Both the position numbers and the translations under genes were made by a program. A model generated the notes under the pieces. The model searched no databases and was not told where the DNA came from. It saw only the letters and a program-made list of their open reading frames with translations. From Armatimonadota bacterium (lineage in GTDB: Bacteria > Armatimonadota > Hebobacteria > CAIYQO01), in the NCBI GenBank assembly GCA_038248345.1, contig JBBRXO010000003.1:9361-73360 (forward strand): 64,000 bases of DNA, in the 5' to 3' direction. Positions 1-54,300 of the stretch are shown here, piece after piece (within the stretch, counting starts at the first letter, position 1; every line of letters starts with the position of its first letter).

Positions 1-1
1 G

Positions 2-187
2 AAGTTTGATGCCGGAGTTGATAACCTGGCCAGAGCTGCTGGTATTGACCGCGAATTGATCCTAAACCAGGCGATGATAACCCCTTCCTGCGGTACCGGA
101 TCATTGCCCGTCGCCGATGCGGAGATGGTCTTTAGTTTATTGGGGCAGACCAGTATTGCATTGCGACAGCGCATGGGCGTTATCTAA
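2..187 (+). CDS. 3' end of a MetE catalytic-core-like protein (MesB-type folate-independent methionine synthase candidate), partial
   Basis: Frame 2 reads KFDAGVDNLARAAGIDRELILNQAMITPSCGTGSLPVADAEMVFSLL...GVI*. ITPSCG(T)GSL is the C-terminal Zn-ligand motif of the Meth_synt_2 core family. It lies directly upstream of the acs operon and is absent from the ORF track because the window truncates it. Confidence 0.7.
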   Translation, partial: KFDAGVDNLARAAGIDRELILNQAMITPSCGTGSLPVADAEMVFSLLGQTSIALRQRMGVI

Positions 188-220
188 TAAGCGAAACCGA
201 AGGCATTTGGGAACAAATCA

Positions 221-1000
221 ATGAGTGCAACAATCGCAGTTACCGGGAAGGGAGGGGTCGGAAAAACCACCATCTCTTCCCTTATTATTCAGTGGCTCGT
301 AGCCACCGGGAAGTCGCCAGTACTGGCGGTGGATGCGGATAGCAACGCCAATTTGAACGAGGCACTCGGTGTTGAATACCGGGCATCTGTAGGCGGAATT
401 CGCGAAGATGCACGTAAAGTAGTAAAAGAGTTGGCGGGCATCGCCAAGCAGGAGTTCCTTGACCTGCAGGTGCAAGCGGCGTTGGTAGAGGAAGAGGGTT
501 ACGACCTGATCGTGATGGGACGCCCGGAAGGTCCGGGTTGCTATTGTTTTGCCAACAATGTACTGCGCGAAGTTATACAGCGGCTGGCGAACAACTATAG
601 CTATATTGTCATTGATAATGAGGCCGGGCTTGAACATCTGTCGCGCCGCACCGTGCTATCAGTTGATTATCTGATCATCGTCTCGGACTGCTCGGTACGG
701 GGGGTACGTACCGCCGGTCGCATCGCCGCGCTGGCGCAGGAGATGGGCACACCTGTGAAAGAGCGCGGTTTGATTGTCAACCGGGTGCCGGGTGGTGTCT
801 TACCCGCTGGTGTGCAGGCAGAGGTGGCGGCCACCGGGTTGACATTGCTGGCGGCTGTTCCGCATGATGCCAGTGTCGCCGAGATGGATGGCGGCGGTTT
901 TGCAGTCGCTTCAATACCTGCCGATGCACCTGCCCGTACGGCCATTAATATTTTACTCACAAATCTGATGTCCCGCGAGCCGGTGATATCTACGACATAA
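221..1000 (+). CDS. cooC: CO dehydrogenase/ACS nickel-insertion ATPase (CooC/AcsF)
   Basis: GKGGVGKTT deviant Walker A, DADSNANL, GPGCYC metal site, DNEAGLEHLSRR; adjacent to cooS. Confidence 0.93.
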   Translation: MSATIAVTGKGGVGKTTISSLIIQWLVATGKSPVLAVDADSNANLNEALGVEYRASVGGIREDARKVVKELAGIAKQEFLDLQVQAALVEEEGYDLIVMGRPEGPGCYCFANNVLREVIQRLANNYSYIVIDNEAGLEHLSRRTVLSVDYLIIVSDCSVRGVRTAGRIAALAQEMGTPVKERGLIVNRVPGGVLPAGVQAEVAATGLTLLAAVPHDASVAEMDGGGFAVASIPADAPARTAINILLTNLMSREPVISTT

Positions 1001-1045
1001 GAATTCTAATCAAAAGTTGAACCTAACCTGAGGAGCTAAACCCTG

Positions 1046-2998
1046 ATGTCAAACGCGCTAGATCAAAGCCCAGCGGATACTCACTCAATCGATCAGGCTA
1101 TCAATACGATGATAGGCGTCGCCAAGAGTGAAGGTATCGCCACAGTATGGGATCGTTATAAGACCCAGATGCCCCAATGTAAATTCGGGCTCACCGGTGT
1201 TTGCTGTAAAATATGCCATATGGGGCCGTGCCGTATTACGCCGAAAGCCCCGTTAGGGATATGTGGCGCCAATGCTGATACCATTGCTGCCCGCAATTTG
1301 CTACGCGAGATCGCCGCCGGTACCGCGGCGCACTCCGATCATGGTCGCCACCTGGTGAAGACACTGCGCCAAGTAGCGCAAGGACGTGGTGGAACCTATA
1401 AGATCACTGATCCACATCGTCTGCATGAGGTTGCCAGCGCATTTGAGATTGAGACGGAAGGGCGCGATGACCTGGCGATTGCCGGGGATTTGGCGGACTT
1501 TTGCTTCCAGCAATTTGCTTGGTCAGAAGAGCCTAACTTCACCTTGCGGATGGCGCCGGAGAAACGCCAGGCGTTGTGGAAAAAGTTGGAGATTGAACCG
1601 CACGGGATTGATGCCGCAGTAGTGGAGTTGATGCACCGCACACACATGGGCGTCGACCACGATTACCGTCACCTTATCATGGGTGGGCTAAAATGCTCAA
1701 TCGCGGACGGTTGGGTAGGGTCATTGATCGCCACTGCGGTGTCAGACATTTTGTTCGGAACGCCGAAGCCGTTGCGGAGTACTGTTAATCTCGGTGTCCT
1801 CTGTGATGATAAAGTGAATATCATCGTCCATGGGCACGAGCCTACGCTCTCCGATATGCTCGCAGTTGCCGCTATGGATGATGAGCTACTTGCTTATGCT
1901 AAGTCGAAAGGCTCTGATGGCATAAATATCGCCGGTATTTGCTGTACCGCCAATGAGGTATTGATGCGGCACGGCCTGCCAATCGCCGGTAATTTCCTGC
2001 AACAGGAGTTGGCTATCATCACTGGCGCAGTCGAGATGATGATCGTAGATGTGCAATGTATCATGCCGTCGTTGCCGGAAGTGATGAAGTGTTTCCACAC
2101 CAAGCTGATTAGCACATCTGAGATAGCGCAGACAATTAACGCAGAACAGATTAACTTCGAGGTGGAGCATGGGTATGAGCAAGCTTGTGATTTGATTCGT
2201 ATGGCTATTGATAACTTCGCGAATCGCGATAATTCACGAGTGAATATCCCCAAGGAATCAATGGATCTGGTAGCAGGGTTTTCTAACGAGGCCATTTTCC
2301 AGATGCTCGGTGGGCGCTTCCGCAGCACTTTCCGCCCGCTCAATGATGCAATTATTGATGGGCGTGTCCGTGGCGTGGTAGGTATCGTCGGTTGCAACAA
2401 CCCGAAGGTACGTACCGACGAATCGCACGTAATACTCACTCGCGAGTTGATCAAAAATAACTACCTGATATTGGAGACCGGCTGTGCCGCTATCGCCTGT
2501 GCGAAGAATGGTCTGCTAACACCGGAGGCTGCATTAGAATTTGCTGGTGACTCACTGCGTGAAGTCTGCGAAGCGGTGGGAATACCACCGGTGTTGCATA
2601 TGGGTTCATGCGTGGACAACAGCCGTATTCTACTCGCCGCCACCAACGTCATGCTTGAAGGCGGGCTGGGGACAGATCTCTCTGATTTGCCGGTAGCTGG
2701 CGCCGCGCCCGAGATGATGTCGGAGAAGGCTGTCGCCATCGGGAGTTATTTCGTCGCTAGCGGCGTTTATGTGGTGTTGGGGCAGCCCCTCTATGTGGAA
2801 GGCAGTGAGAACGTCACCAAGCTCCTCACAGAAGAGATGGAAGATATCACTGGTGGTAAATTCGCCTGGGAGCCAGATCCGTTGAAGGCTGCAAAATTGA
2901 TTATGGATCACATCGAGAAGAAGCGTGATGCCCTGGGCATCAATGCCAAGAAGGAGCGAAAGTTGTACGACATGAAAGAGCGGAGGGAGCTTCAATGA
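1046..2998 (+). CDS. cooS: Anaerobic Ni-Fe carbon monoxide dehydrogenase catalytic subunit (CooS/AcsA)
   Basis: CKFGLTGVCCKICHMGPC..GICG B/D-cluster motif; C-cluster ligands in HGHEP, GICCT, DVQC, VGCNN, TGCA, GSCVDN; SEKA; RBS AGGAG upstream. Confidence 0.97.
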   Translation: MSNALDQSPADTHSIDQAINTMIGVAKSEGIATVWDRYKTQMPQCKFGLTGVCCKICHMGPCRITPKAPLGICGANADTIAARNLLREIAAGTAAHSDHGRHLVKTLRQVAQGRGGTYKITDPHRLHEVASAFEIETEGRDDLAIAGDLADFCFQQFAWSEEPNFTLRMAPEKRQALWKKLEIEPHGIDAAVVELMHRTHMGVDHDYRHLIMGGLKCSIADGWVGSLIATAVSDILFGTPKPLRSTVNLGVLCDDKVNIIVHGHEPTLSDMLAVAAMDDELLAYAKSKGSDGINIAGICCTANEVLMRHGLPIAGNFLQQELAIITGAVEMMIVDVQCIMPSLPEVMKCFHTKLISTSEIAQTINAEQINFEVEHGYEQACDLIRMAIDNFANRDNSRVNIPKESMDLVAGFSNEAIFQMLGGRFRSTFRPLNDAIIDGRVRGVVGIVGCNNPKVRTDESHVILTRELIKNNYLILETGCAAIACAKNGLLTPEAALEFAGDSLREVCEAVGIPPVLHMGSCVDNSRILLAATNVMLEGGLGTDLSDLPVAGAAPEMMSEKAVAIGSYFVASGVYVVLGQPLYVEGSENVTKLLTEEMEDITGGKFAWEPDPLKAAKLIMDHIEKKRDALGINAKKERKLYDMKERRELQ

Positions 2999-5900
2999 GT
3001 AAGATAATCGCCGCCTCCGCAATTAGAGGCGCTCATAAAATTGTCAATGACGCAGAAGCTATGGTTCGCAAGGCCATAGCAGAAAAGGGCGCTGACTGCG
3101 AGGTTGGATTCCCTGATACTACCTATTATCTACCGGTTATTTATTCTTTACTCGGTAAAAAAGTAGAGAAACTGGCTGACATGGAAGATATCCTGGCGGA
3201 ATGTCGCAATCTGTTGCCACCCATACCGCGCGACGGCATCTGGCTCCCGTATCTGGGCGGTACGCTTGACTCCGGCATGGCTACACTATTTGCCTTTGAG
3301 CTGATCGAGGCGTGCAAATACCTTATCGGTCCCAATCCGGTGAACGGCATATGGCTAGGAGCCGCGGGCGATGTCATCATCCGTGAGCGCGGTATTGAGT
3401 TCGTCGATGGCTCCGCCCCTGGCTTTGCCGCCGTGGTAGGAGCGGCACCCGATAAAGAGACCGCCGTGAAGATAGCCCATGAGCTGCAGGAGAAGAACCT
3501 CTATATCTTCCTGGCGGGCAATACCAATGGCGTCTCCTTCGCAGAGCAACTGGAAGAAGCGGGCGTGGAACTGGGCTGGGATACGCGCCTGGTGCCCTTT
3601 GGCAAAGATATATCCTCCGCTGTTTACGCGCTGGGGTTTGCCAATCGTGCAGCGCTCTCCTTCGGCGGTGTTAAGCCGGGTGACTATGCGGCAAACTTGA
3701 AGTACAACAAAAACCGCATCTTCGCTTTTGTTATGGCTCTCGGTGAAGTGACAGATGAAGACTATGCGGCGGCTGCTGGAGCTATCTCCTACGGTTTCCC
3801 CACCATCGCCGATACTGACATACCGGAGATTTTGCCCACGGGAATCTGCACGTACGAGCATGTGGTGGCAAATATCCCCCATGACCGTATTGTGGAGAAA
3901 TGCCTGGAAGTGCGTGGCTGTAAGATCAAAATCACCAAAGTACCCATCCCGGTATCATATGGCGCGGCTTTCGAAGGTGAGCGTATCCGCAAGGAGCAGA
4001 CCTTTGTAGAATTCGGCGGCAACAAGACGCACGGGTTTGAGTATGTAACCACTAAAGAAATAGCGGATGTAGAGGACGGCAAGATGACCGTCATCGGCCC
4101 TGATGTAGATGATGTGGAGGCAGGCAGCGCTCTGCCGCTAGCCATCTGGGTTGAGGTCGCCGGACGCAAAATGCAGCCGGACTTTGAGCCGATCCTGGAA
4201 CGTCAGATACATCACCTCATCAACGGTGCCGAAGGCATCTGGCATATGGGACAACGCGACATCATCTGGATGCGCATCAGCAAAGCCGCCAAGGAAAAAG
4301 GCTTCAGCATCAAACATTTCGGTGAGATCATTCACGCGAAGTTGCTCAATGAGTACCCGGCCATCGTGGACAAAGTGCAGGTAACGCTGGTTACCGATAA
4401 GGACGAAGTAGAGCGACGGTTGGACATTGCGCGGCGCAGCTATCGCGAACGCAACCTGCGCGTAGAGTCGATGACTGACGAGAGCGTTGACACCTTCTAT
4501 TCATGTCTGCTCTGCCAGAGTTTCGCCCCCAACCATGTCTGCGTCATCACGCCGGAGCGACTGGGTCTCTGCGGCGCTTACAACTGGTTAGACGGCAAGG
4601 CCGCCTATGAGATTGACCCCACCGGCCCCAATCAGCCGCTCATCAAAGGTGAATGTATCGATCCGGTGCGCGGGCAGTGGAAAGATATCAACGAGTACGT
4701 CTACTCTAACTCTAAGCAGACCATTGAGCGTTTTAACGCTTATTCAATGCTGGAAGACCCGATGACCAGTTGTGGCTGTTTTGAGGCTATCGTCGCCATG
4801 CTGCCGGAGTGCAATGGGGTGATGATCGTCAACCGTGAGTTCCCCGGCGATACTCCGGCGGGAATGCGATTCTCTACACTGGCGGGGAGTACGGGGGGCG
4901 GGCAGCAGACTCCCGGTTTCATCGGCGTCGGCAAAGCCTATATTGTCAGTAAGAAATTCATCTCGGCGGAAGGCGGGCATAAGCGCATCGTCTGGATGCC
5001 GCGTGAGCTGAAAGAAGCGCTGAAAGAAGACCTGGAGTTGATCGGCAAACGTCTCGGTATTGAGAACTATTGTGATCTTATCGCAGATGAGACCGTCGGG
5101 TCAGATACCGCCTCTGTCAACGCCTATATGCAGAAGGTCAATCACCCGGCGCTGACCATGTGGGATGTAACCACCCCTTCACCGGAATGCGCTGCCATTG
5201 ACGCTGCGCGCGGCGTTGTAGCTGCTACCGCTCCAATTGAGGCGGATGCTCCGGTGGTAACAGCAAATGTAGAAAAAGCAGCAGCGCCAGTCGTTGCCGT
5301 GGCACCGACAGCAGTTGCTGTGGCCGCCCCGGCGCCAGTGGTAGCTGCAAATCAAGTAGATGGTCTGTCCTATGTCATATCAGTACTTGATAAAGTGCGT
5401 GCCACGGGCGTTGCACCGGTTGCTGGTACCAATATGGATCAGCAGATGGCCGCCTTGCAGATGTCCACCGCGGTGAATCTGCTGACAGCTGGCGCCAATA
5501 TGCTGCTAATGTACAGTGGCGCACTCGGCCAGGTACCGGTGGCTCCTGTTGCGTTGCCTATTGCTCACACGGCAGTAACGGAAGTAGATGTGGCAGTGGC
5601 TCCGACGGTTCACCCGATAGCTGCCACATGGGATACCCCGATACTGGTTAAAGAGAAACTGGTTACCTCGGCGAAAATTGCCGTCCCCGCTACCTTTAAG
5701 ATACCGGGCGAAAGCGCTAGCTTGTCAGTTCGTGAGGTCACCCTTGGTGGTAGTGGTACGCGCACCTCGTCGCTCACCCTCGGTGGAGCCAGCGTATTGC
5801 CCTTCCGCCATTACGAGGGTAACATTGGGCGCACTCCGGCAATTGCTATGGAGGTATTTGACCGTCTGCCACGCAACTACCCACAGTCATTGCGGGACGC

Positions 5901-6648
5901 CTACGGAGATATGCTCACCGATGCGCCGAAGATGGCGAAGTACTGCGTCGAGGAGCTAGGCGCGCAGGCAATCAGCATTCGTTTGGACAGCACCCACCCG
6001 GACAATGAGGACACCTCTCCGGCGGCCGCGTGCGACTTTGTACAGGGCGTGCTTAGTGCCGTCGGTGTGCCGATTATTGTCACCGGCCCCAGCCATTACG
6101 AGAAGAACAATGCCGTGATGAAACAGGTAGCAAGCACCTTCACTGGCGAGAACTTGCTGCTGAACTGGGTGGAGACGGATAACTACAAAACCATCGCCGC
6201 CGCCGCCATGGCATATAACCATTGTATTGTGACGCAGACCCCGATTGACGTGAATATGGCTAAACAGTTGAATATTCTCGTCACTAATATGGGGCTAGCT
6301 CCCGAAAAAATCATCATCGACGCGCTGACCGGCGCGCTGGGGTACGGTCTGGAGTACACTTACTCGGTGATGGAGCGTATCCGTAGCTCGGTCTTCACCG
6401 GAGACAGTATGCTGGCATTGCCGATGTTAGGCACGCCCGGCTACGAGATCGCCAAAACAAAAGAAAGCAAAGCGCCGCAAAGCTCCTTCAAAAATTGGGG
6501 CCCAGAGAGCGAGCGGGGCGCATTACTGGAGATCGCAACTGCGATGAGTTTGCTCAATGCTGGCGCTGATCTGCTGGTGATGTATCACCCCATCGCGGCA
6601 ACAACCGTGAAGAAAAAAATTGCCGAGATGACTCGGTTAGAGGACTAA
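2995..6648 (+). CDS. acsB: Fusion of bacterial acetyl-CoA synthase (AcsB) and corrinoid Fe-S protein small subunit (AcsD) via an Ala/Val/Pro-rich linker
   Basis: aa ~1-720 are AcsB (CLLCQSFAPNHVC, GLCG, TSCGCFE, ending HPALTM). aa ~900-1217 are AcsD (VREVTLG, TPIDVNMAKQLN, GYGLEYTYSVMERIR, AGADLLVMYHP). One uninterrupted frame; ATGA overlap with the cooS stop. Confidence 0.93.
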   Translation: MSKIIAASAIRGAHKIVNDAEAMVRKAIAEKGADCEVGFPDTTYYLPVIYSLLGKKVEKLADMEDILAECRNLLPPIPRDGIWLPYLGGTLDSGMATLFAFELIEACKYLIGPNPVNGIWLGAAGDVIIRERGIEFVDGSAPGFAAVVGAAPDKETAVKIAHELQEKNLYIFLAGNTNGVSFAEQLEEAGVELGWDTRLVPFGKDISSAVYALGFANRAALSFGGVKPGDYAANLKYNKNRIFAFVMALGEVTDEDYAAAAGAISYGFPTIADTDIPEILPTGICTYEHVVANIPHDRIVEKCLEVRGCKIKITKVPIPVSYGAAFEGERIRKEQTFVEFGGNKTHGFEYVTTKEIADVEDGKMTVIGPDVDDVEAGSALPLAIWVEVAGRKMQPDFEPILERQIHHLINGAEGIWHMGQRDIIWMRISKAAKEKGFSIKHFGEIIHAKLLNEYPAIVDKVQVTLVTDKDEVERRLDIARRSYRERNLRVESMTDESVDTFYSCLLCQSFAPNHVCVITPERLGLCGAYNWLDGKAAYEIDPTGPNQPLIKGECIDPVRGQWKDINEYVYSNSKQTIERFNAYSMLEDPMTSCGCFEAIVAMLPECNGVMIVNREFPGDTPAGMRFSTLAGSTGGGQQTPGFIGVGKAYIVSKKFISAEGGHKRIVWMPRELKEALKEDLELIGKRLGIENYCDLIADETVGSDTASVNAYMQKVNHPALTMWDVTTPSPECAAIDAARGVVAATAPIEADAPVVTANVEKAAAPVVAVAPTAVAVAAPAPVVAANQVDGLSYVISVLDKVRATGVAPVAGTNMDQQMAALQMSTAVNLLTAGANMLLMYSGALGQVPVAPVALPIAHTAVTEVDVAVAPTVHPIAATWDTPILVKEKLVTSAKIAVPATFKIPGESASLSVREVTLGGSGTRTSSLTLGGASVLPFRHYEGNIGRTPAIAMEVFDRLPRNYPQSLRDAYGDMLTDAPKMAKYCVEELGAQAISIRLDSTHPDNEDTSPAAACDFVQGVLSAVGVPIIVTGPSHYEKNNAVMKQVASTFTGENLLLNWVETDNYKTIAAAAMAYNHCIVTQTPIDVNMAKQLNILVTNMGLAPEKIIIDALTGALGYGLEYTYSVMERIRSSVFTGDSMLALPMLGTPGYEIAKTKESKAPQSSFKNWGPESERGALLEIATAMSLLNAGADLLVMYHPIAATTVKKKIAEMTRLED

Positions 6649-6661
6649 AGGGAGCACGAAG

Positions 6662-8005
6662 ATGGCATTAACTGGTCTGGATATCTTTAAAATATTGCCC
6701 AAAACCAACTGTACTGAATGTGGCGTGCCCACTTGTATGGCATTTGCCATGAAGTTGGCCGCCAAAAGTGTCGAGCTCTCCGCTTGTCCGTATGCCTCGG
6801 AAGAGGCAAAGACAAAGATCGGCGCGGCGAGTAAGCCCCCGATCAGGTTGGTCAAACTCGGGCCAACTGATCGTGAGGTGTTACTGGGGAACGAAACCGT
6901 GATGTTTCGTCACGAGAAGACCTTCGTTCATCCCCCAGCCTTCGCAGTAGCCTTCTCCGATGAGCAATCAGCGGGCGACCTGGCGCATCTCACCGCTACT
7001 GTGCGTGAATATTGCCTGGAGCGCGTGGGTGAGGAGCTTACTCTCGATCTGGTACTGATTGAAAACACCAGCGAAGAGGTAGAGCCGTTCATAGCCGCTA
7101 TCCGCGCAGTGGCGGCCAGCGCCGGACGCGGGGTGATCCTGAAGAGTAGCAACGTGGCGGCTCTGGAAGCTGGTGCGCAATTGCTGGAAGGTCAGCGTCC
7201 CTTATTACATGCGGCGACCACCGAAAATGTGGATGCCGTGGCAGCTATTGCGCTGAAATACAAATGCGCGGTGGTAGCGCAGGCCGCGACGCTGGATGAA
7301 CTGGCGGCGCTGACAAAGAAGCTGGCCGCGCTGGGTGTGCAAGATATCGTGCTCGATATCCCGGCGGATAATATCGCGGCTACGCTGCAGAATAATACCC
7401 TTGCGCGTAAGGCGGCATTGAAGACCGCTTTTGAACCGATGGGCTACCCGGTCATCAACTTCGTTGTAGAGGAAGACCTGCCCAGTCTGGTGGCAGATGC
7501 TTCGACTTTGATCTGTAAATACGCGTCGATCCTGGTGATAGATACACTTTCCTATCAGGCGCTATTGCCGTTGATGATGTTACGGCAGAATATCTATACC
7601 GACCCGCAGAAACCGATCCAAGTAGAGCCGAAGATCTACCCCATCGGGGAGCCGGATGATAATTCACCGGTACTGGTTACTACCAACTTCTCGCTGACAT
7701 ACTTCATCGTTTCGGGAGAGATTGAGAACTCAGGTATATCCGCGCACCTCGTTATTGTCGAATGCGAAGGGATGAGCGTGCTTACCGCCTGGGCAGCCGG
7801 GAAGTTCTCCGGCGAGAAGATCGCGCAGTTCATCAAATCCTCCGGCCTGGAACAGCAGGTTAAAACCCGCCGCCTCATCATCCCCGGCTATGTCGCGCAG
7901 ATCAGCGGCGACCTGGAAGAGGGGCTGAAAGGCTGGGAGATAGTCGTCGGACCGCAAGAAGCATCCGACCTGGGGCCGTTTATGAAGCTACAGGTGGGTA
8001 AGTAA
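6662..8005 (+). CDS. acsC: Corrinoid iron-sulfur protein large (gamma) subunit
   Basis: LPKTNCTECGVPTCMAFA..CPY, ETVMFRHEKTF, RQNIYTDPQKP, TTNFSLTYF, SVLTAWAAGKF. Confidence 0.97.
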   Translation: MALTGLDIFKILPKTNCTECGVPTCMAFAMKLAAKSVELSACPYASEEAKTKIGAASKPPIRLVKLGPTDREVLLGNETVMFRHEKTFVHPPAFAVAFSDEQSAGDLAHLTATVREYCLERVGEELTLDLVLIENTSEEVEPFIAAIRAVAASAGRGVILKSSNVAALEAGAQLLEGQRPLLHAATTENVDAVAAIALKYKCAVVAQAATLDELAALTKKLAALGVQDIVLDIPADNIAATLQNNTLARKAALKTAFEPMGYPVINFVVEEDLPSLVADASTLICKYASILVIDTLSYQALLPLMMLRQNIYTDPQKPIQVEPKIYPIGEPDDNSPVLVTTNFSLTYFIVSGEIENSGISAHLVIVECEGMSVLTAWAAGKFSGEKIAQFIKSSGLEQQVKTRRLIIPGYVAQISGDLEEGLKGWEIVVGPQEASDLGPFMKLQVGK

Positions 8006-8054
8006 ACCCAGCGGCCACCTCCAGGCCTTTGAGCTAGAAACTAGGAGCAAAAAT

Positions 8055-9977
8055 ATGCCTATAGTTCGCTTTCTACCCGGCAATACCACTGTAGAAGTCC
8101 CCGTTGGCACTCTCATTCATGAGGCGGCTATCAAGGCGGGGATAGAAGAGTTACATCTTCCATGTGGTGGTAAAGGTACATGCGGGCGGTGCCTGGTGGA
8201 GATCGTTGAGGGCACGACAGATGGGGTGGGACACTCGCATTTGGCCGATGCTTTGGCTGGCGGGCGGCTAGTGATGGCGTGCCAGACGAAGGTGCGCGAG
8301 GATATAACCGTTGGCATACGCCCCAAGCATGATGACACTATGCGGGTGGTGGGTGACAGTCATTTGCTCATCGGCGATGACCTGTTGCCGGATATTGATG
8401 ATCTCTCACCGCTCTACCGCTTTGTGCAATTGACGGTACCCGAGGCATCAATTGAAGAGCATTATAGTGACTGGCAACGCATCGTACGGCTGTTAGGCGA
8501 CTGGGATCGCACATTGCCAACTTGCCCCCTGAACGTTACAACCGATATTACAGTATTACGTCAGCTAGCCGAGGTATTGCGAGCACAGGATGGCCGTGTG
8601 ACAGTGACTATCCGCGAGGAAGATGCCGGTATACACGTTCTAGCGGTGGAAGCCGGGCATGTGGAAAAGAAAGCCTATGGGCTGGCAATCGACATCGGCA
8701 CAACCACCGTGGCAGTGCAACTGGTTGACCTGGTTGCGGGCCGTGTAATAGCGAGTCGTACTTCTTATAACGCACAGATTCGCCGTGGTGGTGATATCAT
8801 CAGTCGTATCGACTACGCTCGCACACCAGAGCGGCAAGAGGAATTACGTGGGCTGGTGCTGGAGACATTGCGTGAATTGATCGCAGATACTCTCGCCTGT
8901 ACGCGTACTGATTCGCAAGCGGTGTATGCAGCTTTCATCGCTGGCAACACTACCATGATCCACCTGCTACTCGCCCTGCCTCCGCGATACATTCGCGAGT
9001 CACCATACGTACCCACCGTCAACACCGTGCCAACGCTTACCGCCGCCGAAGTGGGACTACCGATCAACCCTACCGCAATAGTATCCTGCGCGCCGGGGGT
9101 GGGTAGTTATGTGGGCGGCGATATTACTGCTGGATTGCTCTGCACCGAGTTGACGACTAACAGCGAAGAGGTGTTTCTCTTTTTGGATATCGGCACCAAT
9201 GGTGAGATTGTGCTGGGTAATGCCGATTGGTTGGTCACCTGCGCCTGCTCTGCCGGGCCAGCTTTTGAAGGTTCTGGTATCAAGTGCGGTATGCGCGCAA
9301 CTGACGGCGCTATTGAATACTTCGCTATAGCACCTGGAATGCAGGAGATTAGCTACGATGTTATCGGTAATGGTAAACCAGCGGGTATCTGCGGTTCTGG
9401 CCTGATTTCGCTACTGGGCGAGTTACTATTGCGCGGTGTGGTTGACCAAATGGGGCGTTTCAATATGGAGCTGCCCACCGACAGGCTTATAAAAACACCT
9501 AACGGTAATGCCTTCGTGCTGGAGTTTGCCGCTGAGACGCAAGCTGGTGCTGACCTTTTCATTACCGAGGCAGATATTGAAAACCTGATGCGCACGAAAG
9601 CGGCGATTTATGCTGCTTGCGCGCTCATACTCGATAATGTCGGATTGGCTTGGAGCGCAATATCGCATGTCTATATCGCAGGTGGTTTTGGGCGCTATAT
9701 CCAGATAGATGACGCTATCATGATCGGGCTGTTGCCTGACTTGGAGGCCGAACGCTTCCATTATATCGGCAACTCCGCCCTCACTGGCGCTTATATCGCT
9801 TTGTTGACCGCCAAGGGCCGGCAGCAACTAGCCACCACCGCTGCGCGCATGACCTACATCGATTTAAGTAGCGATCATCGCTACATGGACAGCTACCTAG
9901 GCGCACTCTTCCTGCCACATACAGATATGACGCAATTCCCCACCGTGGCGGAGAAGATGATGGCGGCGCGGGCATAA
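8055..9977 (+). CDS. acsV: Reductive activator of corrinoid protein (RACo/AcsV; 2Fe-2S plus ASKHA ATPase)
   Basis: CGGKGTCGRC..ACQ 2Fe-2S motif; DIGTTT, DIGTNGE, SAGPAFEG, GICGSG, AGGFG. Confidence 0.92.
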   Translation: MPIVRFLPGNTTVEVPVGTLIHEAAIKAGIEELHLPCGGKGTCGRCLVEIVEGTTDGVGHSHLADALAGGRLVMACQTKVREDITVGIRPKHDDTMRVVGDSHLLIGDDLLPDIDDLSPLYRFVQLTVPEASIEEHYSDWQRIVRLLGDWDRTLPTCPLNVTTDITVLRQLAEVLRAQDGRVTVTIREEDAGIHVLAVEAGHVEKKAYGLAIDIGTTTVAVQLVDLVAGRVIASRTSYNAQIRRGGDIISRIDYARTPERQEELRGLVLETLRELIADTLACTRTDSQAVYAAFIAGNTTMIHLLLALPPRYIRESPYVPTVNTVPTLTAAEVGLPINPTAIVSCAPGVGSYVGGDITAGLLCTELTTNSEEVFLFLDIGTNGEIVLGNADWLVTCACSAGPAFEGSGIKCGMRATDGAIEYFAIAPGMQEISYDVIGNGKPAGICGSGLISLLGELLLRGVVDQMGRFNMELPTDRLIKTPNGNAFVLEFAAETQAGADLFITEADIENLMRTKAAIYAACALILDNVGLAWSAISHVYIAGGFGRYIQIDDAIMIGLLPDLEAERFHYIGNSALTGAYIALLTAKGRQQLATTAARMTYIDLSSDHRYMDSYLGALFLPHTDMTQFPTVAEKMMAARA

Positions 9978-9998
9978 TATTTTGATTGTCGAGATGAC

Positions 9999-10089
9999 TG
10001 TAGGGGCACAAGGCTTGTGCCCAAGTCTTAACCATACGATTTGTATAATAGAAAACTCGGAAAGAGGGCACATGCCATGTGCCCCTACA
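9999..10089. repeat. REPIN-like doublet, GTAG-type REP (copy 1)
   Basis: TGTAGGGGCACAAGGCTTGTGCCC ... GGGCACATGCCATGTGCCCCTACA, two small hairpins in inverted orientation; near-identical ends recur at 57830-57927. Confidence 0.85.
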
Positions 10090-10117
10090 ATATTTAACGG
10101 ATACAGGAGGACTAATT

Positions 10118-11014
10118 ATGAAATCACTTCTCGAACGCCTTGCCGCCGGTGAGATCCTTATCTCAGACGGGGCCATGGGCACTTTCCTTCAGGCGAAGGG
10201 CCTGCAACCCGGCGAATCTCCTGAGGCGTGGTGTTGCTCGCATCCGGACGCTGTGAAGAGTATTGCCGAGGCTTACATTGCTGCTGGCTCGGATATTGTT
10301 GAGACCGATTCCTTCGGCGGCACTACTTTCAAGCAGCGCGAATTCGGTCTGGCAGATAAGGTTGATGAGTTCAACACTGCCTCTGCCAAGCTAGCCAAAG
10401 AAGCCATGGGCGACAAAGGCTATGTGGCGGCATCGGTAGGCCCCACCGGGCAAATTGTCGAGGATGAGGGCGGCGATGTCACCGAAGAAGAGCTTTATGA
10501 AGCCTTCAAACAGCAAGTAATCGCGCTGGCCGCTGGCGGTGCCGATGCGGTCTGTATTGAAACCATGTCATCCGTTACTGAGGCAGTGCAAGCCATCAAA
10601 GCCAGCAAAGATAACACTGACCTGCTGGTGATTGCTACCTTCACCTTCGAGCCAGGTGCGCACGGCTTCCGCACAATGATGGGCGTCACCCCTTCGCGCG
10701 CCGCCGGGGAATCGGTGGCCGCCGGCGCCGACATCATTGGCGCTAATTGTGGCAATGGCATCGCTAATATGATTGAGATCACCCGCGAATTGCGCGCCGC
10801 CGCCCCTAATACCCCGATCCTTATCCACGCGAACGCTGGTATGCCGGTATTTGAAGACGGCAATACCGTATTCAAAGAGACTCCTGCCGACATGGCAGCC
10901 CGCGTAAAGGAATTGGTCGAAGCTGGAGCCAATATAATTGGTGGTTGCTGTGGCACCACGCCTGCGCATATAGCAGCGATGGCAGAAGTGGCACGGGGAT
11001 GTGGAAAAAGCTAA
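10118..11014 (+). CDS. Stand-alone homocysteine S-methyltransferase domain (MetH N-terminal domain-like)
   Basis: DGAMGT, GANCG and GGCCGTTP Zn ligands, NAGMP. Start moved to ATG 10118 behind RBS AGGAGG. No pterin- or B12-binding domains. Confidence 0.9.
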   Translation: MKSLLERLAAGEILISDGAMGTFLQAKGLQPGESPEAWCCSHPDAVKSIAEAYIAAGSDIVETDSFGGTTFKQREFGLADKVDEFNTASAKLAKEAMGDKGYVAASVGPTGQIVEDEGGDVTEEELYEAFKQQVIALAAGGADAVCIETMSSVTEAVQAIKASKDNTDLLVIATFTFEPGAHGFRTMMGVTPSRAAGESVAAGADIIGANCGNGIANMIEITRELRAAAPNTPILIHANAGMPVFEDGNTVFKETPADMAARVKELVEAGANIIGGCCGTTPAHIAAMAEVARGCGKS

Positions 11015-11049
11015 TCCAGTAAATACCGCCATAGCGTTTTAGCTACGAG

Positions 11050-11086
11050 AATGCCCGGCGAAGAGGCTTCGCCGGGCATTGTTTTT
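11050..11086. terminator. Intrinsic terminator between the convergent acs operon and rplY
   Basis: AATGCCCGGCGAAG-AGG-CTTCGCCGGGCATT followed by GTTTTT. Confidence 0.85.
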
Positions 11087-11094
11087 GCTTGAAA

Positions 11095-11691
11095 TTAAGC
11101 AACCGTTTCTTCAGGAGCTGCTTCCGCAACCACGCGCAGTGGCTGACGGATATGTGCTACGCACTCGGTGGGGTTGTCGAGTAACTCACAACCTTTAGGA
11201 AGTTCGATAGCACCGGCTTCCAGGATATCGCCGATCATCATCGCGGAGATGTCGTGCTTCACATTGTCAGGCACGGTGCCGGCGGCACTGCGTATATGCA
11301 ACGTGTGCATGCTAATATCCAGCATGCCGCCCATTGCGACGCCGGCGGCTTCGCCTTCCAGCACCACAGTTACAGTCACTTGCAGTTTTTCTTTCAAGGA
11401 GATGCGTTGCAAGTCGAGGTGCAGGGGAATCTGTTTGATCGCTTCGCGCTGCACGGATTTAACCAGTGCCAGTCCGCTGTCTTTACCGTCAATCAACAGA
11501 TTAACCAGCTGTGAGCCGGAACTGCTTTCATGCAGCATGACGCTCAACTGTCGCAGTTCCAGCACCAGTGATACCGGATCGCCATGTCCGTAAACTGATG
11601 CGGGTATGAGACCCTGATGGCGCAATTGGCGCGACGAGTTTGTGCCAGTGCCTGTGCGAGATGAACAGGTTAGCGTAGGATACATAGTCAT
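11095..11691 (-). CDS. rplY: 50S ribosomal protein L25/Ctc
   Basis: SRQLRHQGLIPASVYG, ALVKSVQR, HLDLQRI, GEAAGVAMGG. Confidence 0.9.
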   Translation of the reverse strand: MTMYPTLTCSSRTGTGTNSSRQLRHQGLIPASVYGHGDPVSLVLELRQLSVMLHESSSGSQLVNLLIDGKDSGLALVKSVQREAIKQIPLHLDLQRISLKEKLQVTVTVVLEGEAAGVAMGGMLDISMHTLHIRSAAGTVPDNVKHDISAMMIGDILEAGAIELPKGCELLDNPTECVAHIRQPLRVVAEAAPEETVA

Positions 11692-11882
11692 TTTAAGCTT
11701 CCTCTCTGATACACAGATGGTTGGAGGCTACCAAGGAGACTGTTTAGTGACTCGCGAGTCATCCAACAGCTCTACGGGAAGTCATTACCAAAAATGGTCA
11801 ATATAATGATAACAGTATTCGTGATTACTGTCCAATTTTGGCGTAACACCGCCCGGAGATTAGTATTAATGCTGCTAGACGA

Positions 11883-11966
11883 CTAGGCAGTTCCGCTGTT
11901 TGGAGCCTTGGAAACCTTCACTTTTTTAGGTTTCTTGGTATCTTTTTTCGGAGATTTATCTCCCAT
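11883..11966 (-). CDS. Unannotated 27-aa Lys-rich small protein MGDKSPKKDTKKPKKVKVSKAPNSGTA
   Basis: ATG preceded by GGAAAGGA SD-like sequence; TAG stop; below the ORF-track length cut-off. Confidence 0.55.
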   Translation of the reverse strand: MGDKSPKKDTKKPKKVKVSKAPNSGTA

Positions 11967-12356
11967 AGCGTACATCCTTTCCGATATCGAATATCCGATC
12001 TCTAAGATTACTCACACTAACAGGAATACCGGCCAGTGTCAAATAGTAGTAGGTATAATTTTTCCCATTGTTTGTCTGATTATCATGACACAACGAAAAA
12101 ATGTATCGATTTTAGAAAGCCGACGATAAAACTCGCCTGCTACTGGTTGGCTTTTCTGATATAAAAGCCTGGTAAAGTGGATAACCAGGATATCGCTGAC
12201 AATGCAACAATGCTTTAAAAAACAGTACCAGTAGGTTGATACTAGCAGGATACAGCTCCGGTACGATTTCACTCCCGTGAAATATCTCACAATGTGGCGA
12301 AAGCGATGATTTAAGTAAATAATAGTAGGTTGTTTGCTTACTAATAATTGCTACTT

Positions 12357-39899: not shown

Positions 39900-41075
39900 A
39901 TGACTAAACGTGAACGTTTTTTAGCAGCTATGACAAACAAGGTGCCTGATAGAGTACCGGTGGCGCCTGATTTCTCCAATTATATCCCGGCCCGTCGTAC
40001 CGGGCTACCATTCTGGGATATCTATTTTAATGGTACCATCCCACTCTGGCAGGCGTACCTGGATACAGCCGATTATTTCGGAGCGGAAGCCTGGATCGCG
40101 TCGTGTTTCGGGGTGCCATTATTAATGGAGCCGACTGCAACGGAGTATCACCATGAAGATATTTTCGATGCGAGTAATGACGCCATGATACGCAGGTGGA
40201 CCATGCGGACGGCACTGGGAGAACTGGATGGGCGCGATCAATGTTATCGCTACGATCCGCCCTCACCAGTGGTAAAGCCCATTAAAGAGTTGGAACGCGA
40301 CTTCCCGATCTGGAAATCTGCGCAATCATTACCACGTGCGCTAGATATGGCTGTTTGGGACGAAGTACGTGCTGCGTGTGAACAACGAGAGCAAGCATTC
40401 GGTGCTACCATAGGGTATCCTGGCTTTCAGGGATGGATGGGTGTGGTAGAAGATGGCATCATGCAATTGTCAGTAGCAGACATGGAGACACCAGAGCTAC
40501 TTGAAGAGTGGCTGGAATGGGATATGGCCGTGGGTACACGTGCGATGGAGCTTCTTATCGCCGCCAAGCCGGACTATATCCTATTGGGTGGCTCCGGTAC
40601 CATAACCTTATCTTCACCCAGATTAGCCCGCAAGTACGCTTTGCCCGGGTTAAAGAAGTTCTCCCAGATGGCCAAAGAAGCGGGTATCCCCACCATGGTA
40701 CACAGCTGCGGCAAGTCAATGGCGCTAGTAGAGATGCTGGCCGAAGAAACGGATGTAAATTGCCTCAACCCATTGGAGATTCCGCCAATGGGCGATGCCG
40801 ATCTGGCCAAGGTAAAACGTAAGTATGGACAGCAAATAAGCCTGATGGGTAACCTGCATACCACTGAAGTTATACTCCATAGTACTCCCCAACAGGTGCA
40901 ACAAGCAGCAATCCAAGCAATGAAAGATGCCGGGCAGGGTGGGGGATTCATCCTCTCCACTGGCGACCAATGTCCACGTGACACCCCCGATGAAAATATC
41001 TTCGCTTTAGTAGAAGCAGCACATACCTTCGGTGTTTATAATCAAGCCACAGGAACGTTGACGGAGTTATCGTAA
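39900..41075 (+). CDS. Uroporphyrinogen decarboxylase / MtaA-CmuA methyltransferase superfamily protein
   Basis: MTKRERFLAAM..PDRVPV, HSCG, GNL, GGGFILSTGDQC..TPDEN. Confidence 0.85.
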   Translation: MTKRERFLAAMTNKVPDRVPVAPDFSNYIPARRTGLPFWDIYFNGTIPLWQAYLDTADYFGAEAWIASCFGVPLLMEPTATEYHHEDIFDASNDAMIRRWTMRTALGELDGRDQCYRYDPPSPVVKPIKELERDFPIWKSAQSLPRALDMAVWDEVRAACEQREQAFGATIGYPGFQGWMGVVEDGIMQLSVADMETPELLEEWLEWDMAVGTRAMELLIAAKPDYILLGGSGTITLSSPRLARKYALPGLKKFSQMAKEAGIPTMVHSCGKSMALVEMLAEETDVNCLNPLEIPPMGDADLAKVKRKYGQQISLMGNLHTTEVILHSTPQQVQQAAIQAMKDAGQGGGFILSTGDQCPRDTPDENIFALVEAAHTFGVYNQATGTLTELS

Positions 41076-50846: not shown

Positions 50847-51347
50847 ATGGAGAAAATCGAAACAACCTGTACCTGCGGCGAAGAGACTGATGAAGCGAAG
50901 CGCGCGCGGATCATCGAGATCATCGATGAATTTAAGGGACGTGATGGCAGCCTGATCCAGATACTGCATCTGGTGCAGGGGGTGTATGGATACCTGCCGT
51001 TGGAGATTCAGCAGTTGATCGCCGAGAGGATGGATATCCCCCTTTCGGAGGTCTACGGCGTAACGACTTTCTACTCATTCTTTTCCACGCAACCACGGGG
51101 GAAGAACACCATAAGCGTTTGTATGGGCACCGCCTGCTATGTGCGGGGGAGCGCCAAACTGCTGAAAAGACTGTCAGAAATGCTGGGGGTTGAGGTAGGT
51201 TCTACCACCGAAGACCGCAAGTATACGTTGGAGGTCATGCGCTGTATGGGTGCCTGTGGGTTGGCCCCGGCGGTGATGGTGAACGGCGAAGTTATTCCAC
51301 AAGTTAATCCAGAAAAATTGAATCGTATCCTTGATAAGTGCGATTAG
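50847..51347 (+). CDS. hydC: [FeFe]-hydrogenase gamma subunit (NuoE-like 2Fe-2S)
   Basis: VCMGTAC..RCMGACGLAP; RBS GAGGA. Confidence 0.9.
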   Translation: MEKIETTCTCGEETDEAKRARIIEIIDEFKGRDGSLIQILHLVQGVYGYLPLEIQQLIAERMDIPLSEVYGVTTFYSFFSTQPRGKNTISVCMGTACYVRGSAKLLKRLSEMLGVEVGSTTEDRKYTLEVMRCMGACGLAPAVMVNGEVIPQVNPEKLNRILDKCD

Positions 51348-51358
51348 GAGAAAAGGTA

Positions 51359-54300
51359 ATGGCAAATATCCCTGAAAAAGTTATCTCCAGAGCTGATCTG
51401 GAGTCAATTAAAACACAATACGATGCGCAGCAAAAAGATATCCGCTTCCATCTGCTGGTATGTGCTGGCGCTGGCTGCGTCTCTTCCGGCTGTTATGCCG
51501 TGCGTGATGCGCTGGTTGCCGCGCTGAAAGATGCGGGGCTCACCGAGCAGGTATCGCTACAGGAGACTGGCTGCATCGGCACCTGCGACCTGGGGCCATC
51601 GCTGGTGATACAGCCGGACGATGTCTTCTACACGAAGCTAAAACCGGAAGATATGGCACGGATTGTACAACAGCACCTGCAGGATGGACAGGTTATCGAA
51701 CGCCTCTGCTACTGGGACAAGGACAAAGAGAAGCACGTCACCCAGTTGTCGGAGATTGAATTCTTCAAACGGCAACTGCGGTTAGTGACCGGGCGTTGCG
51801 GCAATCTGCCGTATCAGTCGGTCGAGGCGTATATCTCCTCGGATGGCTACCTGGCGCTGGCGAAAGCCCTCACCGATATGTCGCGCATGGACGTCATCGA
51901 CGAGATGAAACGCTCTGGCCTGCGGGGCCGCGGCGGCGGCGGTTTCCCCGCCGGCATCAAGTGGCTGGCGGGCTATAACGCGCCGGGCAGCGAGAAGTAC
52001 ATCGTCTGCAATGGCGACGAGGGCGACCCTGGCGCATTCATGGATCGCTCGCTGATGGAGGGTGATCCTCACGCCGTCATCGAGGGGATGTTAATCGCCG
52101 GTTATGCTATCGGCGCTAATCATGGCTTTATCTATGTACGAGCCGAGTACCCGCTGGCTATTAACCGCATGGAAGTCGCGCTGCGCCAGGCACGGGAATT
52201 AGGTCTCCTCGGTGACCACGTGATGGGCACCGACTTCGCCTTTGATATTGAGATTCGCATCGGAGCAGGAGCCTTTGTCTGCGGTGAAGAGACCGCGCTG
52301 ATGGATTCCATCGAGGGCAAACGCGGCGAGCCACGACAGAAGCCGCCATTCCCCTTCGAGGCGGGTGTTTTCGGCAAGCCGACGATTATCAATAATGTGG
52401 AGACGCTGGCCAATGTTCCGCTGATCATCTACCGGGGTGCGGACTGGTTCACGCAATACGGCACTGAAGGCAGCAAGGGGACGAAAGTCTTCGCGCTGGC
52501 CGGTGATGTGCAGAACACCGGCATCGTCGAAGTACCGCTGGGCATTCCGTTGGGAGAGATCATCTTCGATATCGGCGGCGGCATCCAGAAGGGCAAGCTC
52601 TTCAAAGCCGCGCAGACCGGCGGCCCCTCGGGCGGTTGTCTCACGCGCAAGCATCTGAATACTCCGGTGGATTACGATTCGCTGGTGAAGCTGGGCACTA
52701 TCATGGGCTCCGGCGGTCTCATCGTCATGGATGAGGACACCTGTATGGTGGATGTCGCCCGGTTCTTCCTCGATTTCGTGCAGGATGAATCCTGCGGTAA
52801 GTGTGTCCCCTGCCGTATCGGCACCAAGCGTATGCTGGAGATTCTGGAGCGTATCACTAAAGGCGAGGGCAAGGAAGGCGATATCGAGTTGCTGGAAGAG
52901 CTGGCAATGACTTGCAAAGAGACGGCCACCTGTGGGTTAGGACAGACGGCAGGTAACCCGGTGTTAAGTACCATCCGCCACTTCCGCGAGGAATATGAAG
53001 AGCATATCAAGTATCATTATTGTCGCGCTGGTGTCTGCGCTGACTTGATGCAGTCGCCATGTCAGAATGCTTGTCCGGCTGGAGTTAACATCCCCGGCTA
53101 TGTGGCGCTTATCGCCGCTGGCAGGCCGCGGGATGCCTACAATCTAGTACGCAAGGAGAATCCATTCCCCGCGATTTGTGGGCGCGTTTGTACTCACCCT
53201 TGCGAGAGCAAATGCCGTCGCTCGCAACTGGATGAACCGCTGGCCATCTGCGACCTGAAGCGCTATGCGGCGGATTATGTCTTTTACAACGAAGAGCCGT
53301 ATATGGATCTCGTCTTCCCACAAAAACCGGAGTCGGTGGGGATAATTGGTGCTGGCCCCAGCGGTTTAACCTGCGCCTACTACCTGGCGCGGTTGGGCTA
53401 TAATGTCACTGTTTATGAAGCTGAGAGTATCGCTGGTGGTATGCTGGCGTATGGAATCCCGGAATATCGCCTGCCCAATGCGATCCTCGCAAAAGAGATA
53501 AAATTATTGGAGCAAGTTGGTGTAAATATTAAAACTGGGGTTGAAGTGGGCAAAGATATACTGTTTGCTGAATTGAAAGAGAAGCACAATGCAATTTATA
53601 TCGCTATCGGCACGCAGTTCCCCAATAAGATTAACATCCCGGGCGAGGAGCTGCCGGGCGTCTATCATGGCCTGAATTTCCTGCGTGATGTTGCGCTGGG
53701 ACGCCCGACCACCGTGGGCAAAAACGTGATAGTAATCGGAGGTGGTAGTACCGCCTTTGATACCGCGCGCACGGCGCTACGCATGGGAGCGGAGAAAGTC
53801 ACTATTATCTATCGGCGGCAAATCGAAGATATGCCGGCGGATGTTCGGGAAATTGATGAAGCTATTGAAGAAGGTATCGAGATCGTTCCGCTCACTGCGC
53901 CGCTCGAGTTCGTCGGTCATGAGAGGGTCGAAGGTGTCCGATGTGCGCAGATGGAATTGCGTGGTTATGATGATGCCGGACGCCGCAAGCCGGTGCAAGT
54001 GAAGGGCAATGAATTCGTCCTCTCGGCGGACATGGTGATCCCGGCAGTCAGCCAACATTCGGACTTACCTTTCATCGACAAGGATGAAGTGGAACTGACA
54101 CAATGGGGCACGTTGATAACAGATCCGGAGACGATGATGACCTCCATGCGTGGTGTCTTCGCTGGTGGCGATGCGGTGCGCGGCCCCGATGTGGTAATCC
54201 AGGCGATTGCCGACGGTAAAAAGACGGCGATCAACATCGACCTTTTCCTCGGTGGCGCCGGGGTACTCAATACCGGCGAGGCTATTGAAATCCCAGCGGC

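Follow-up and report, generated by a model that had tools for sequence, protein, structure and literature searches.

A CODH/ACS operon in Armatimonadota with a mesB gene and a split-MetH homocysteine module at its two ends, candidates for separate methionine outlets

Organization of the operon

The stretch of DNA analyzed here (the window; 64,000 nucleotides) comprises bases 9361–73360 of contig 3 (C3; JBBRXO010000003.1) in the draft genome of an Armatimonadota bacterium (GCA_038248345.1; 2.98 Mb, 185 contigs, 95.7% complete). Its first 11 kb encode a CO dehydrogenase/acetyl-CoA synthase (CODH/ACS) with the corrinoid iron–sulfur protein (CFeSP) and, at the two ends of the same operon, two unrelated candidate methionine synthases: MesB, a MetE-like enzyme, and Hcy-MT, a stand-alone homocysteine S-methyltransferase of the MetH type. 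On balance, we favor a reading in which these are two separate methionine outlets, MesB drawing on CFeSP and Hcy-MT on CorP, a small corrinoid protein encoded on another contig. The nearest public relatives of the genes in the window come from metagenome-assembled genomes (MAGs) of Armatimonadota, followed by those of Acidobacteriota (Terriglobia).

Gene calls from open reading frames (ORFs) and Pfam and NCBIfam profile matches confirmed the co-directional run described in the original prediction, a model's annotation of the letters alone, as MetE-like gene, cooC, cooS, acsB/D, acsC, acsV, homocysteine methyltransferase gene and terminator. Two of its labels needed sharpening: the acsV product is an activase of the RACo (reductive activator of corrinoid proteins) type, and acsB/D is a true single-frame fusion. 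From 5′ to 3′ the order is AcsF-like ATPase, MesB, CooC, CooS, AcsB~AcsD, AcsC, RACo/AcsV, Hcy-MT and terminator, the genes from mesB onward being co-directional:

C3:7674–8465 (895–1686 bases before the window): CooC/AcsF-like ATPase, the second of two in the cluster, 23 bp ahead of mesB
1–187, plus strand: 3′ end of mesB, last 61 codons and stop; the whole gene is C3:8489–9547, 352 aa, and starts 871 bases ahead of the window
221–1000, plus strand: cooC-type Ni-insertion ATPase (AAA_31, CbiA)
1046–2998, plus strand: cooS/acsA, Ni-CODH (Prismane, 574.7 bits)
2995–6648, plus strand: acsB~acsD fusion, 1217 aa, acetyl-CoA synthase plus small CFeSP subunit (CODH_A_N, CdhC and ACS_CODH_B_C; CdhD)
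6662–8005, plus strand: acsC, large CFeSP subunit (FeS and CdhD, 333 bits)
8055–9977, plus strand: RACo1, RACo/AcsV-type reductive activase of corrinoid proteins (Fer2 and RACo linker, middle and C-terminal domains)
9978–10117, plus strand: spacer of 140 bp with two hairpins, a TATAAT box and an AGGAGG box
10118–11014, plus strand: Hcy-MT, stand-alone MetH-type homocysteine S-methyltransferase, MtgE-like split-MetH module 3 (PF02574, 235 bits)
11050–11090, plus strand: intrinsic-terminator-like hairpin (11050–11080, 14-bp stem) and T run, ending the co-directional run

Starting from the upstream ATPase, successive genes are separated by 23, 33, 45, −4, 13 and 49 bp, and 140 bp then lie ahead of the Hcy-MT gene. 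In that longer spacer, hairpins at 10003–10022 and 10066–10084 with identical GGGCACA/TGTGCCC arms flank a TG-TATAAT box at 10042–10049 (TATAAT at 10044–10049), and an AGGAGG box (10105–10110) stands 7 nt 5′ of the ATG at 10118; the Hcy-MT gene may thus have a promoter of its own inside the spacer. An Rfam search of window positions 1–12000 at E ≤ 1, and of four partner loci at the gathering score, returned no riboswitch or other family, just a chance microRNA match. The gene for ribosomal protein L25 (11095–11691) follows the terminator on the opposite strand.

Neither the cluster nor the 9.3 kb ahead of the window showed a Pterin_bind, MTHFR (methylenetetrahydrofolate reductase), FTHFS or FolD domain; those 9.3 kb encode AraC, LacZ, a protein of the URO-D family, ExbB/ExbD, one hypothetical protein and the second CooC/AcsF-like ATPase. 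The predicted lack of AcsE and of folate genes in the cluster therefore held up, and the proviso that acsE might lie just upstream did not, as the genes beyond the ATPase are unrelated. An AcsE gene within or beside the acs genes, the criterion for a complete Wood–Ljungdahl pathway, is accordingly missing here. Copies of cooC that are 61–70% identical occupy the same position in the 10 related loci that extend that far.

In the AcsB~AcsD protein, model NF040764 scores 1073 bits over residues 10–724, the AcsD models cover residues ~900–1213, and a linker of ~140 residues joins the parts. Both parts share a single open frame in 12 of the 13 related Armatimonadota and Acidobacteriota loci that carry them, with locus L038 out of frame. 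RACo1 scores 606 bits with NF040756, under the cut-off of 800.

For comparison, we assembled 37 related loci with Hcy-MT orthologues (43–88% identical) and searched the 37 genomes in full. The order AcsD–AcsC–RACo–Hcy-MT, mostly also with AcsB, CooS and CooC, recurs in 16 of these loci, from Armatimonadota and Acidobacteriota MAGs, and the arrangement is therefore not a product of chance. Four further AcsC-bearing loci have a broken RACo (one) or a contig end inside RACo (three), which still stands directly 5′ of Hcy-MT.

Assignment of the first gene to MesB

The gene called MetE-core-like in the original prediction is the 352-aa mesB, which contains the motif quoted for it. By sequence its product is nearly featureless: there was no Pfam match even at E = 10 and no NCBIfam match; comparison with PDB, from the single sequence or from a 46-sequence profile, gave chance matches alone; and the cluster member names of 10 distant relatives held nothing informative. 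The family is large, with 2015 representative clusters at E ≤ 0.001, and 9 of 46 diverse members give weak matches to PF01717. What tied it to MetE was its fold, together with a Dehalococcoidia counterpart. With an AlphaFold model (pLDDT 77.7), the best Foldseek matches were MetE chains (E = 9e-7 to 1e-5; TM-score 0.40–0.55 on the query), and UroD came next.

Searching 81 Dehalococcoidia genomes with MesB gave a match in 38. The protein used for comparison, 345 aa long and encoded in a 1.36-Mb single-contig genome, is 34% identical to MesB (217 bits over 344 columns), and its gene is co-directional with genes for methylthioadenosine (MTA) phosphorylase, MtnA, a kinase-like protein, S-adenosylhomocysteine (AdoHcy) hydrolase and S-adenosylmethionine (SAM) synthetase. 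Such a SAM-cycle context was described for the core-MetE operon of cbdbA481 (Deobald 2020, PMC7005905), and after a 2-residue offset the ligands of the 345-aa protein coincide with the His215, Cys217, Asp236 and Cys312 given in that source. Because operon context and ligand positions both agree with PMC7005905, we regarded this protein as of the core-MetE type and used it as a stand-in for the characterized Dehalococcoides mccartyi enzyme. Residues H223, C225, D244 and C321 of MesB align with the published Zn ligand positions; among the 46 diverse family members H223 is invariant and the other three are nearly so.

Price 2021 (PMC7857596) recognizes MesB by a score of at least ~130 bits (~29% identity), Zn ligands H, C, D/E and C, and AcsC and AcsD in the genome. 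Similarity, Zn ligands, a ~340-aa barrel (352 aa) that lacks the folate-binding N-terminal half, and AcsC and AcsD were all found, the last two encoded in the same operon as mesB. MesB is present in 18 of the 20 AcsC-bearing genomes among the 37 and in 0 of the 17 in which AcsC was not found. Judged by fold, ligands and family membership, the first gene encodes a single-barrel methionine synthase of the MesB/core-MetE type. A public record (P0045, 616 aa) joins a CooC/AcsF-like ATPase to MesB, and the MesB match of genome G020 lies within a 611-aa open frame; these long frames hint that the ATPase and MesB are linked through maturation.

Hcy-MT and the parts of a split MetH

PF02574 is the sole family that scores above its cut-off on Hcy-MT, and no other PF02574 gene occurs in the genome. 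Among solved structures the closest is the homocysteine-binding (Hcy) domain of Thermotoga maritima MetH (156 bits), followed by betaine–homocysteine methyltransferase (BHMT; 81 bits) and MmuM (52 bits). The NCBIfam betaine–homocysteine model scores 229.5 bits, under its cut-off of 338, and the MmuM model likewise stays under its cut-off. C211, C277 and C278 are invariant across 17 orthologues; they presumably correspond to the thiol-activating Cys triad that binds zinc in MetH.

The remaining parts of a methionine synthase are scattered over other contigs. CorP, a small His-on corrinoid protein with PF02607, PF02310 and a D-x-H-x-x-G motif, is encoded in single copy on C20 among housekeeping genes. 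MeTr, a methyltetrahydrofolate (methyl-THF):corrinoid methyltransferase of 268 aa, is encoded in single copy on C32 with unrelated neighbors and is the sole pterin-binding protein in the genome; it scores 289.6 bits with NF005719 (cut-off 259), and the AcsE-specific model NF040758 gives 112 bits against a cut-off of 370. A second RACo-type activase, RACo2, lies on C149 and is 32% identical to RACo1, and a DUF1638 homologue occupies C40:15922–16668. Neither the reactivation domain PF02965 nor MetE was found in the genome. By domain content, these parts match a three-part split MetH of the Phaeobacter type, including its RamA-like activase and DUF1638 protein.

The acs RACo as sole activase, necessarily serving CorP, was considered and rejected given RACo2. 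The RamA-like genes beside Hcy-MT in other genomes are 30–34% identical, at about equal distance, to RACo1 and RACo2 and so give no pointer to the activase of CorP. Matches to the URO-D/MtaA family occur at 10 places on 8 contigs (twice each on C3, C53 and C7), against a single MetH-type corrinoid protein; the sites include C3:4943–5941 and window positions 39900–41075, with others on C53, C7, C2, C64, C19 and C47. Some of these proteins could be donor-specific methyltransferases for CorP.

Hcy-MT in genomes with and without acs genes

Across the 37 genomes, a CorP homologue is universal (37/37), and AcsC was found in 20 and not found in 17. Hcy-MT from the latter belongs to the same orthologue group (52–84% identical), and in 10 of those 17 loci it lies within 10 kb of CorP, mostly together with a RamA-like activase or a URO-D methyltransferase. 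Three Acidobacteriota loci carry RamA-like, Hcy-MT, URO-D methyltransferase, CorP and DUF1638 genes in that order (DUF1638 was identified in these three), and in one Bacillota locus Hcy-MT, MeTr and CorP form a single 819-aa frame.

A maximum-likelihood tree of 38 Hcy-MT proteins follows phylum, with acs-linked and unlinked copies interspersed within each. It requires 7 label changes, at least 3 of them forced by well-supported branches, and the acs-linked copies do not make up one clade. The best 120 longer relatives listed are mostly MetH forms of ~800 aa (PF00809, PF02607 and PF02310); one of these 120 is fused to PF02965 and one to RACo, and an AcsC-type domain fused to Hcy-MT was not seen among them. 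In the RACo fusion (P0276; 873 aa, from an Acidobacteria MAG), the activase part is of the RACo1 type (56% identical) and the remainder is an Hcy-MT (71% identical). This one record, whose RACo lacks the last ~80 residues, may reflect a deletion or an assembly artefact.

In the Armatimonadota relatives L078, L079, L081 and L085, RACo2 and DUF1638 adjoin CorP; MeTr adjoins MetF in relatives and, in G001, shares one cluster with MetF and Fhs. Taken together, the co-occurrence and clustering with CorP, the tree, the fusions and the partner neighborhoods indicate that Hcy-MT has an acs-independent job with CorP.

A stand-alone MeTr was found in just 9 of the 20 acs-bearing relatives. It was not seen in the 8 operon-bearing Terriglobia genomes, which have just FolP and a long MetH-like frame (764–1312 aa, some cut by a contig end). 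CorP homologues of Terriglobia (loci L074–L077 and L082–L084; genomes G014, G016, G020–G022 and G027) cluster with URO-D-type methyltransferases, and in several cases DUF1638 and a RamA-like activase lie there too. G014 alone has an Hcy-MT in such a cluster, a paralogue that is 40% identical. One reading is that the acs-linked gene serves as the shared Hcy-MT of the Terriglobia URO-D/CorP systems; a bolder and less probable one has it take methyl from CFeSP, in addition or in place of that role.

The folate branch

Fhs and FolD are encoded in this genome. MTHFR was not found at its 95.7% completeness, either by profile or by tblastn with MetF and YitJ-like proteins of relatives, and FolP was not found in the assembly, although 19 of 20 relatives have it; the missing FolP and MTHFR reflect either an assembly gap or a folate-dependent lifestyle. 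In a family-level sample, MTHFR is present in 25 of 31 genomes. The sister genus g2 has it in 0 of 3 genomes (96, 82 and 87% complete), all of which keep MesB, an acs-linked Hcy-MT, MeTr, CorP and FolP; in the two g2 genomes with both genes on one contig, the single PF02574 gene lies ~11.3 kb downstream of MesB. Because these three genomes lack MTHFR and yet retain the other five genes, the MetF-less state seems real in part of this family.

Two methionine outlets and competing explanations

In the model that we consider the most probable, the Zn-dependent MesB would move a methyl group from the methyl-CFeSP of its operon (AcsC and the AcsD half of the fusion) to homocysteine without folate. 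Hcy-MT would be the homocysteine-binding module of the three-part split MetH, with CorP as its corrinoid partner; MeTr would load CorP with methyl from methyl-THF, and RACo2 and the DUF1638 protein most likely keep CorP reduced. Between CFeSP and tetrahydrofolate, MeTr is also the sole candidate for the AcsE step. If the genome really has no MetF, the methyl groups for both routes would have to come from methyl-CFeSP, through acetyl-CoA cleavage by ACS with CooS oxidizing the CO, or from other methyl donors by way of URO-D-type methyltransferases; we prefer the former, a Dehalococcoides-like shunt with a CODH. A route of that kind from acetyl-CoA through CFeSP to methionine is plausible because MesB is present, AcsE is missing from the cluster and MTHFR was not found. 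To this extent the acetyl-CoA-to-methionine shunt of the original prediction stands, although its step from CFeSP to MesB had already been put forward by Deobald 2020 (PMC7005905) and Price 2021 (PMC7857596), where it explains methionine formation without MetF and AcsE.

Several points weigh against the two-outlet model. In every AcsC-bearing genome (20 of 20, two phyla), Hcy-MT lies directly 3′ of the acs RACo, a position that a split MetH does not predict, and this conserved pairing is a well-defined question that the split-MetH reading leaves behind. Loading of CorP by MeTr cannot hold for the 8 Terriglobia genomes, because they have no stand-alone MeTr. Within one operon, a pair of corrinoid-dependent methionine synthases seems redundant, and methyl transfer from CFeSP by MesB is a published hypothesis, not a demonstrated reaction. 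As for the folate side, the absence of MetF may be an assembly gap (185 contigs, with FolP also missing), all 37 Hcy-MT-bearing genomes have MTHFR, and a YitJ-like Hcy-MT~MTHFR fusion occurs in a genome of the same genus (77% complete). Such fusions are ~610 aa long (L054 3515–5356; L057 2458–4284), and their Hcy domain is 33% identical to the acs-linked Hcy-MT.

A possible alternative, to which we give about half the weight of the two-outlet model, is that the cluster runs towards acetyl-CoA: MeTr would act as AcsE and methylate CFeSP, CooS would supply CO, and MesB and Hcy-MT would tap the methyl pool, the methyl group coming from methyl-THF or, through URO-D-type methyltransferases and CorP, from methylated substrates. 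The CODH, which D. mccartyi lacks, would suit this direction, as would Fhs and FolD, the G001 cluster of MeTr with MetF and Fhs, the MTHFR of all 37 Hcy-MT-bearing genomes and of most of the family-level sample, and the many URO-D-family sites; against these stand the missing MTHFR here and in g2, which would block de novo methyl synthesis from CO2 in these genomes, and the fact that no methyl-donor-specific MT1 was identified. The direction of ACS itself cannot be read from sequence.

The feature that the original prediction considered novel, a MetH-type Hcy module that in acs-bearing lineages takes methyl directly from methyl-CFeSP as its B12 module, with MesB and Hcy-MT as parallel outlets, now appears unlikely. 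It would account for much if true, as a CFeSP-fed Hcy-MT with the acs RACo as shared activase explains both the 20/20 position directly behind the CFeSP activase and the MeTr-less Terriglobia with the cluster, and the paralogue in the CorP cluster of G014 could free the acs-linked copy for such a role. MeTr, CorP, RACo2 and DUF1638 exist elsewhere in the genome, and the comparison of neighborhoods around homologues of 10118–11014 that the prediction proposed cut both ways: linkage is complete where AcsC is present, and the same orthologue group persists in the 17 genomes, among 37, that gave no AcsC match, CorP being retained in every one of the 37. In other lineages Hcy-MT clusters with CorP and RamA-like genes, and acs-linked copies are not a clade of their own. 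Fusions offer something to either side, since the 873-aa record does join a RACo1-type activase to Hcy-MT, but it stands alone with its RACo end missing, and none of the best 120 longer relatives listed has an AcsC-type fusion. Most likely, Hcy-MT does not use CFeSP. Of the findings named as counting against the original prediction, part were made: the pterin and B12 partners MeTr and CorP lie elsewhere in the genome, and the Hcy-MT group is not tied to acs.

That Hcy-MT is instead a corrinoid-independent thiol methyltransferase of the betaine or S-methylmethionine type, lying behind acs by accident, is very improbable: the betaine–homocysteine match, though sub-threshold, and the homology of split-MetH Hcy modules to Sinorhizobium Bmt (PMC12478193) would fit, but MetH Hcy domains are the closest solved structures by a wide score difference, the orthologues repeatedly cluster with genes for CorP, a RamA-like activase and DUF1638, and PF02965, the reactivation domain of MetH, is fused to one relative.

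Relation to known systems

Labeling work on the Dehalococcoides mccartyi route was reportedly done by Zhuang et al., as quoted by Deobald 2020 and Price 2021. The methyl flow proposed here, from acetyl-CoA through methyl-CFeSP to homocysteine, resembles that of D. mccartyi, for which an incomplete Wood–Ljungdahl pathway with core-MetE has been described (Deobald 2020, PMC7005905; Price 2021, PMC7857596). Both have an enzyme of the MesB type whose zinc ligands, H-x-C...D...C, are spaced alike, and both have AcsB, AcsC and AcsD with no adjacent AcsE and no MetF found (here in a draft assembly). Unlike D. mccartyi, this genome encodes CooS and two CooC-type maturases, so that leakage of CO is not required; its mesB is part of the acs operon instead of neighboring SAM-cycle genes; AcsB is fused to AcsD; and MeTr, CorP and a MetH-type Hcy module are also present. 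The phylum differs as well, being Armatimonadota here with close copies in Acidobacteriota.

The second outlet has its counterpart in the split MetH of three parts (MtgC/MtgD/MtgE; the Hcy module being of the PGA1_c13370/MtgE type) plus RamA-like activase and DUF1638, a five-part system that was genetically proven in Phaeobacter inhibens and Ruegeria pomeroyi (Price 2018, PMC5764234; Mausz 2025, PMC12478193). Shared with these are separate PF02574, PF00809 and PF02607 + PF02310 proteins, a Fer2 + DUF4445 (RACo-type) activase, a DUF1638 protein and the lack of PF02965; the pterin-binding gene of our relatives adjoins metF much as mtgD stands beside metF2. In contrast to Phaeobacter and Ruegeria, the five genes are scattered here, and that for the Hcy module closes a CODH/ACS operon at its 3′ end, where it follows a different paralogue of RACo. 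A donor methyltransferase of the MttB type was not identified in this genome, and the organism is presumably an anaerobe.

Some methanogens have mesB–acsC–acsD operons, which Price 2021 (PMC7857596) read as support for a direct functional link. The co-directional arrangement of mesB with CFeSP genes is common to both, whereas the present operon is bacterial and has a full CODH/ACS set (CooC, CooS, AcsB~D and RACo) plus the extra MetH-type Hcy module. Compared with acs clusters of acetogens such as Acetobacterium woodii, described with cooC, acsV, acsD, acsC and acsE (PMC6925170), the operon likewise brings together CooC, AcsV/RACo, AcsC, AcsD, AcsB and CODH, but it has no acsE, fuses AcsB to AcsD and carries methionine-synthase genes at both ends.

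A literature search, supplementary tables excluded (for example S1 Table of PMC7857596), returned no description of an acs operon that ends in a stand-alone Hcy methyltransferase gene, nor of MesB in Armatimonadota or Acidobacteriota; literature combining 'homocysteine S-methyltransferase' with 'acsV' concerns YitJ. The operon is of a distinct design common to Armatimonadota and Terriglobia: it has mesB and a split-MetH module at opposite ends, fuses AcsB to AcsD and lacks acsE. The methionine route without folate, known from Dehalococcoides, would extend here to Armatimonadota and Acidobacteriota of soil and sediment, and the analysis identifies lineages with no MetF found that nevertheless keep MesB, MeTr, CorP and Hcy-MT. 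Which corrinoid protein feeds which homocysteine methyltransferase thereby becomes a testable question. The hand-over from CFeSP to MesB has been proposed since 2020 and never shown, and these operons offer a compact gene set for its reconstitution. As MesB matches neither Pfam nor NCBIfam, annotation pipelines would overlook this methionine synthase and could miscall such genomes as methionine auxotrophs.

Other features of the window and genome

Further along the window, positions 51338–54457 encode a 1039-aa protein with 2Fe-2S_thioredx, Complex1_51K and NADH_4Fe-4S (NuoE-/NuoF-like) and GltD/Pyr_redox_2 domains, followed by a 603-aa ORF. The protein may belong to a redox complex that is electron-bifurcating or NADH-linked.

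The same-genus locus L021 was aligned with contig 3 in a search for the borders of an acs insertion or deletion; the match was confined to the Hcy-MT gene, the flanks being rearranged, and no borders were seen. Two families of short dispersed repeats (~60–130 bases, 80–97% identical) are spread over dozens of contigs, and the same-genus genome has them too, examples being C2:38454–38543 and C152:5624–5713 here and 2389–2682 and 4563–4688 in L021.

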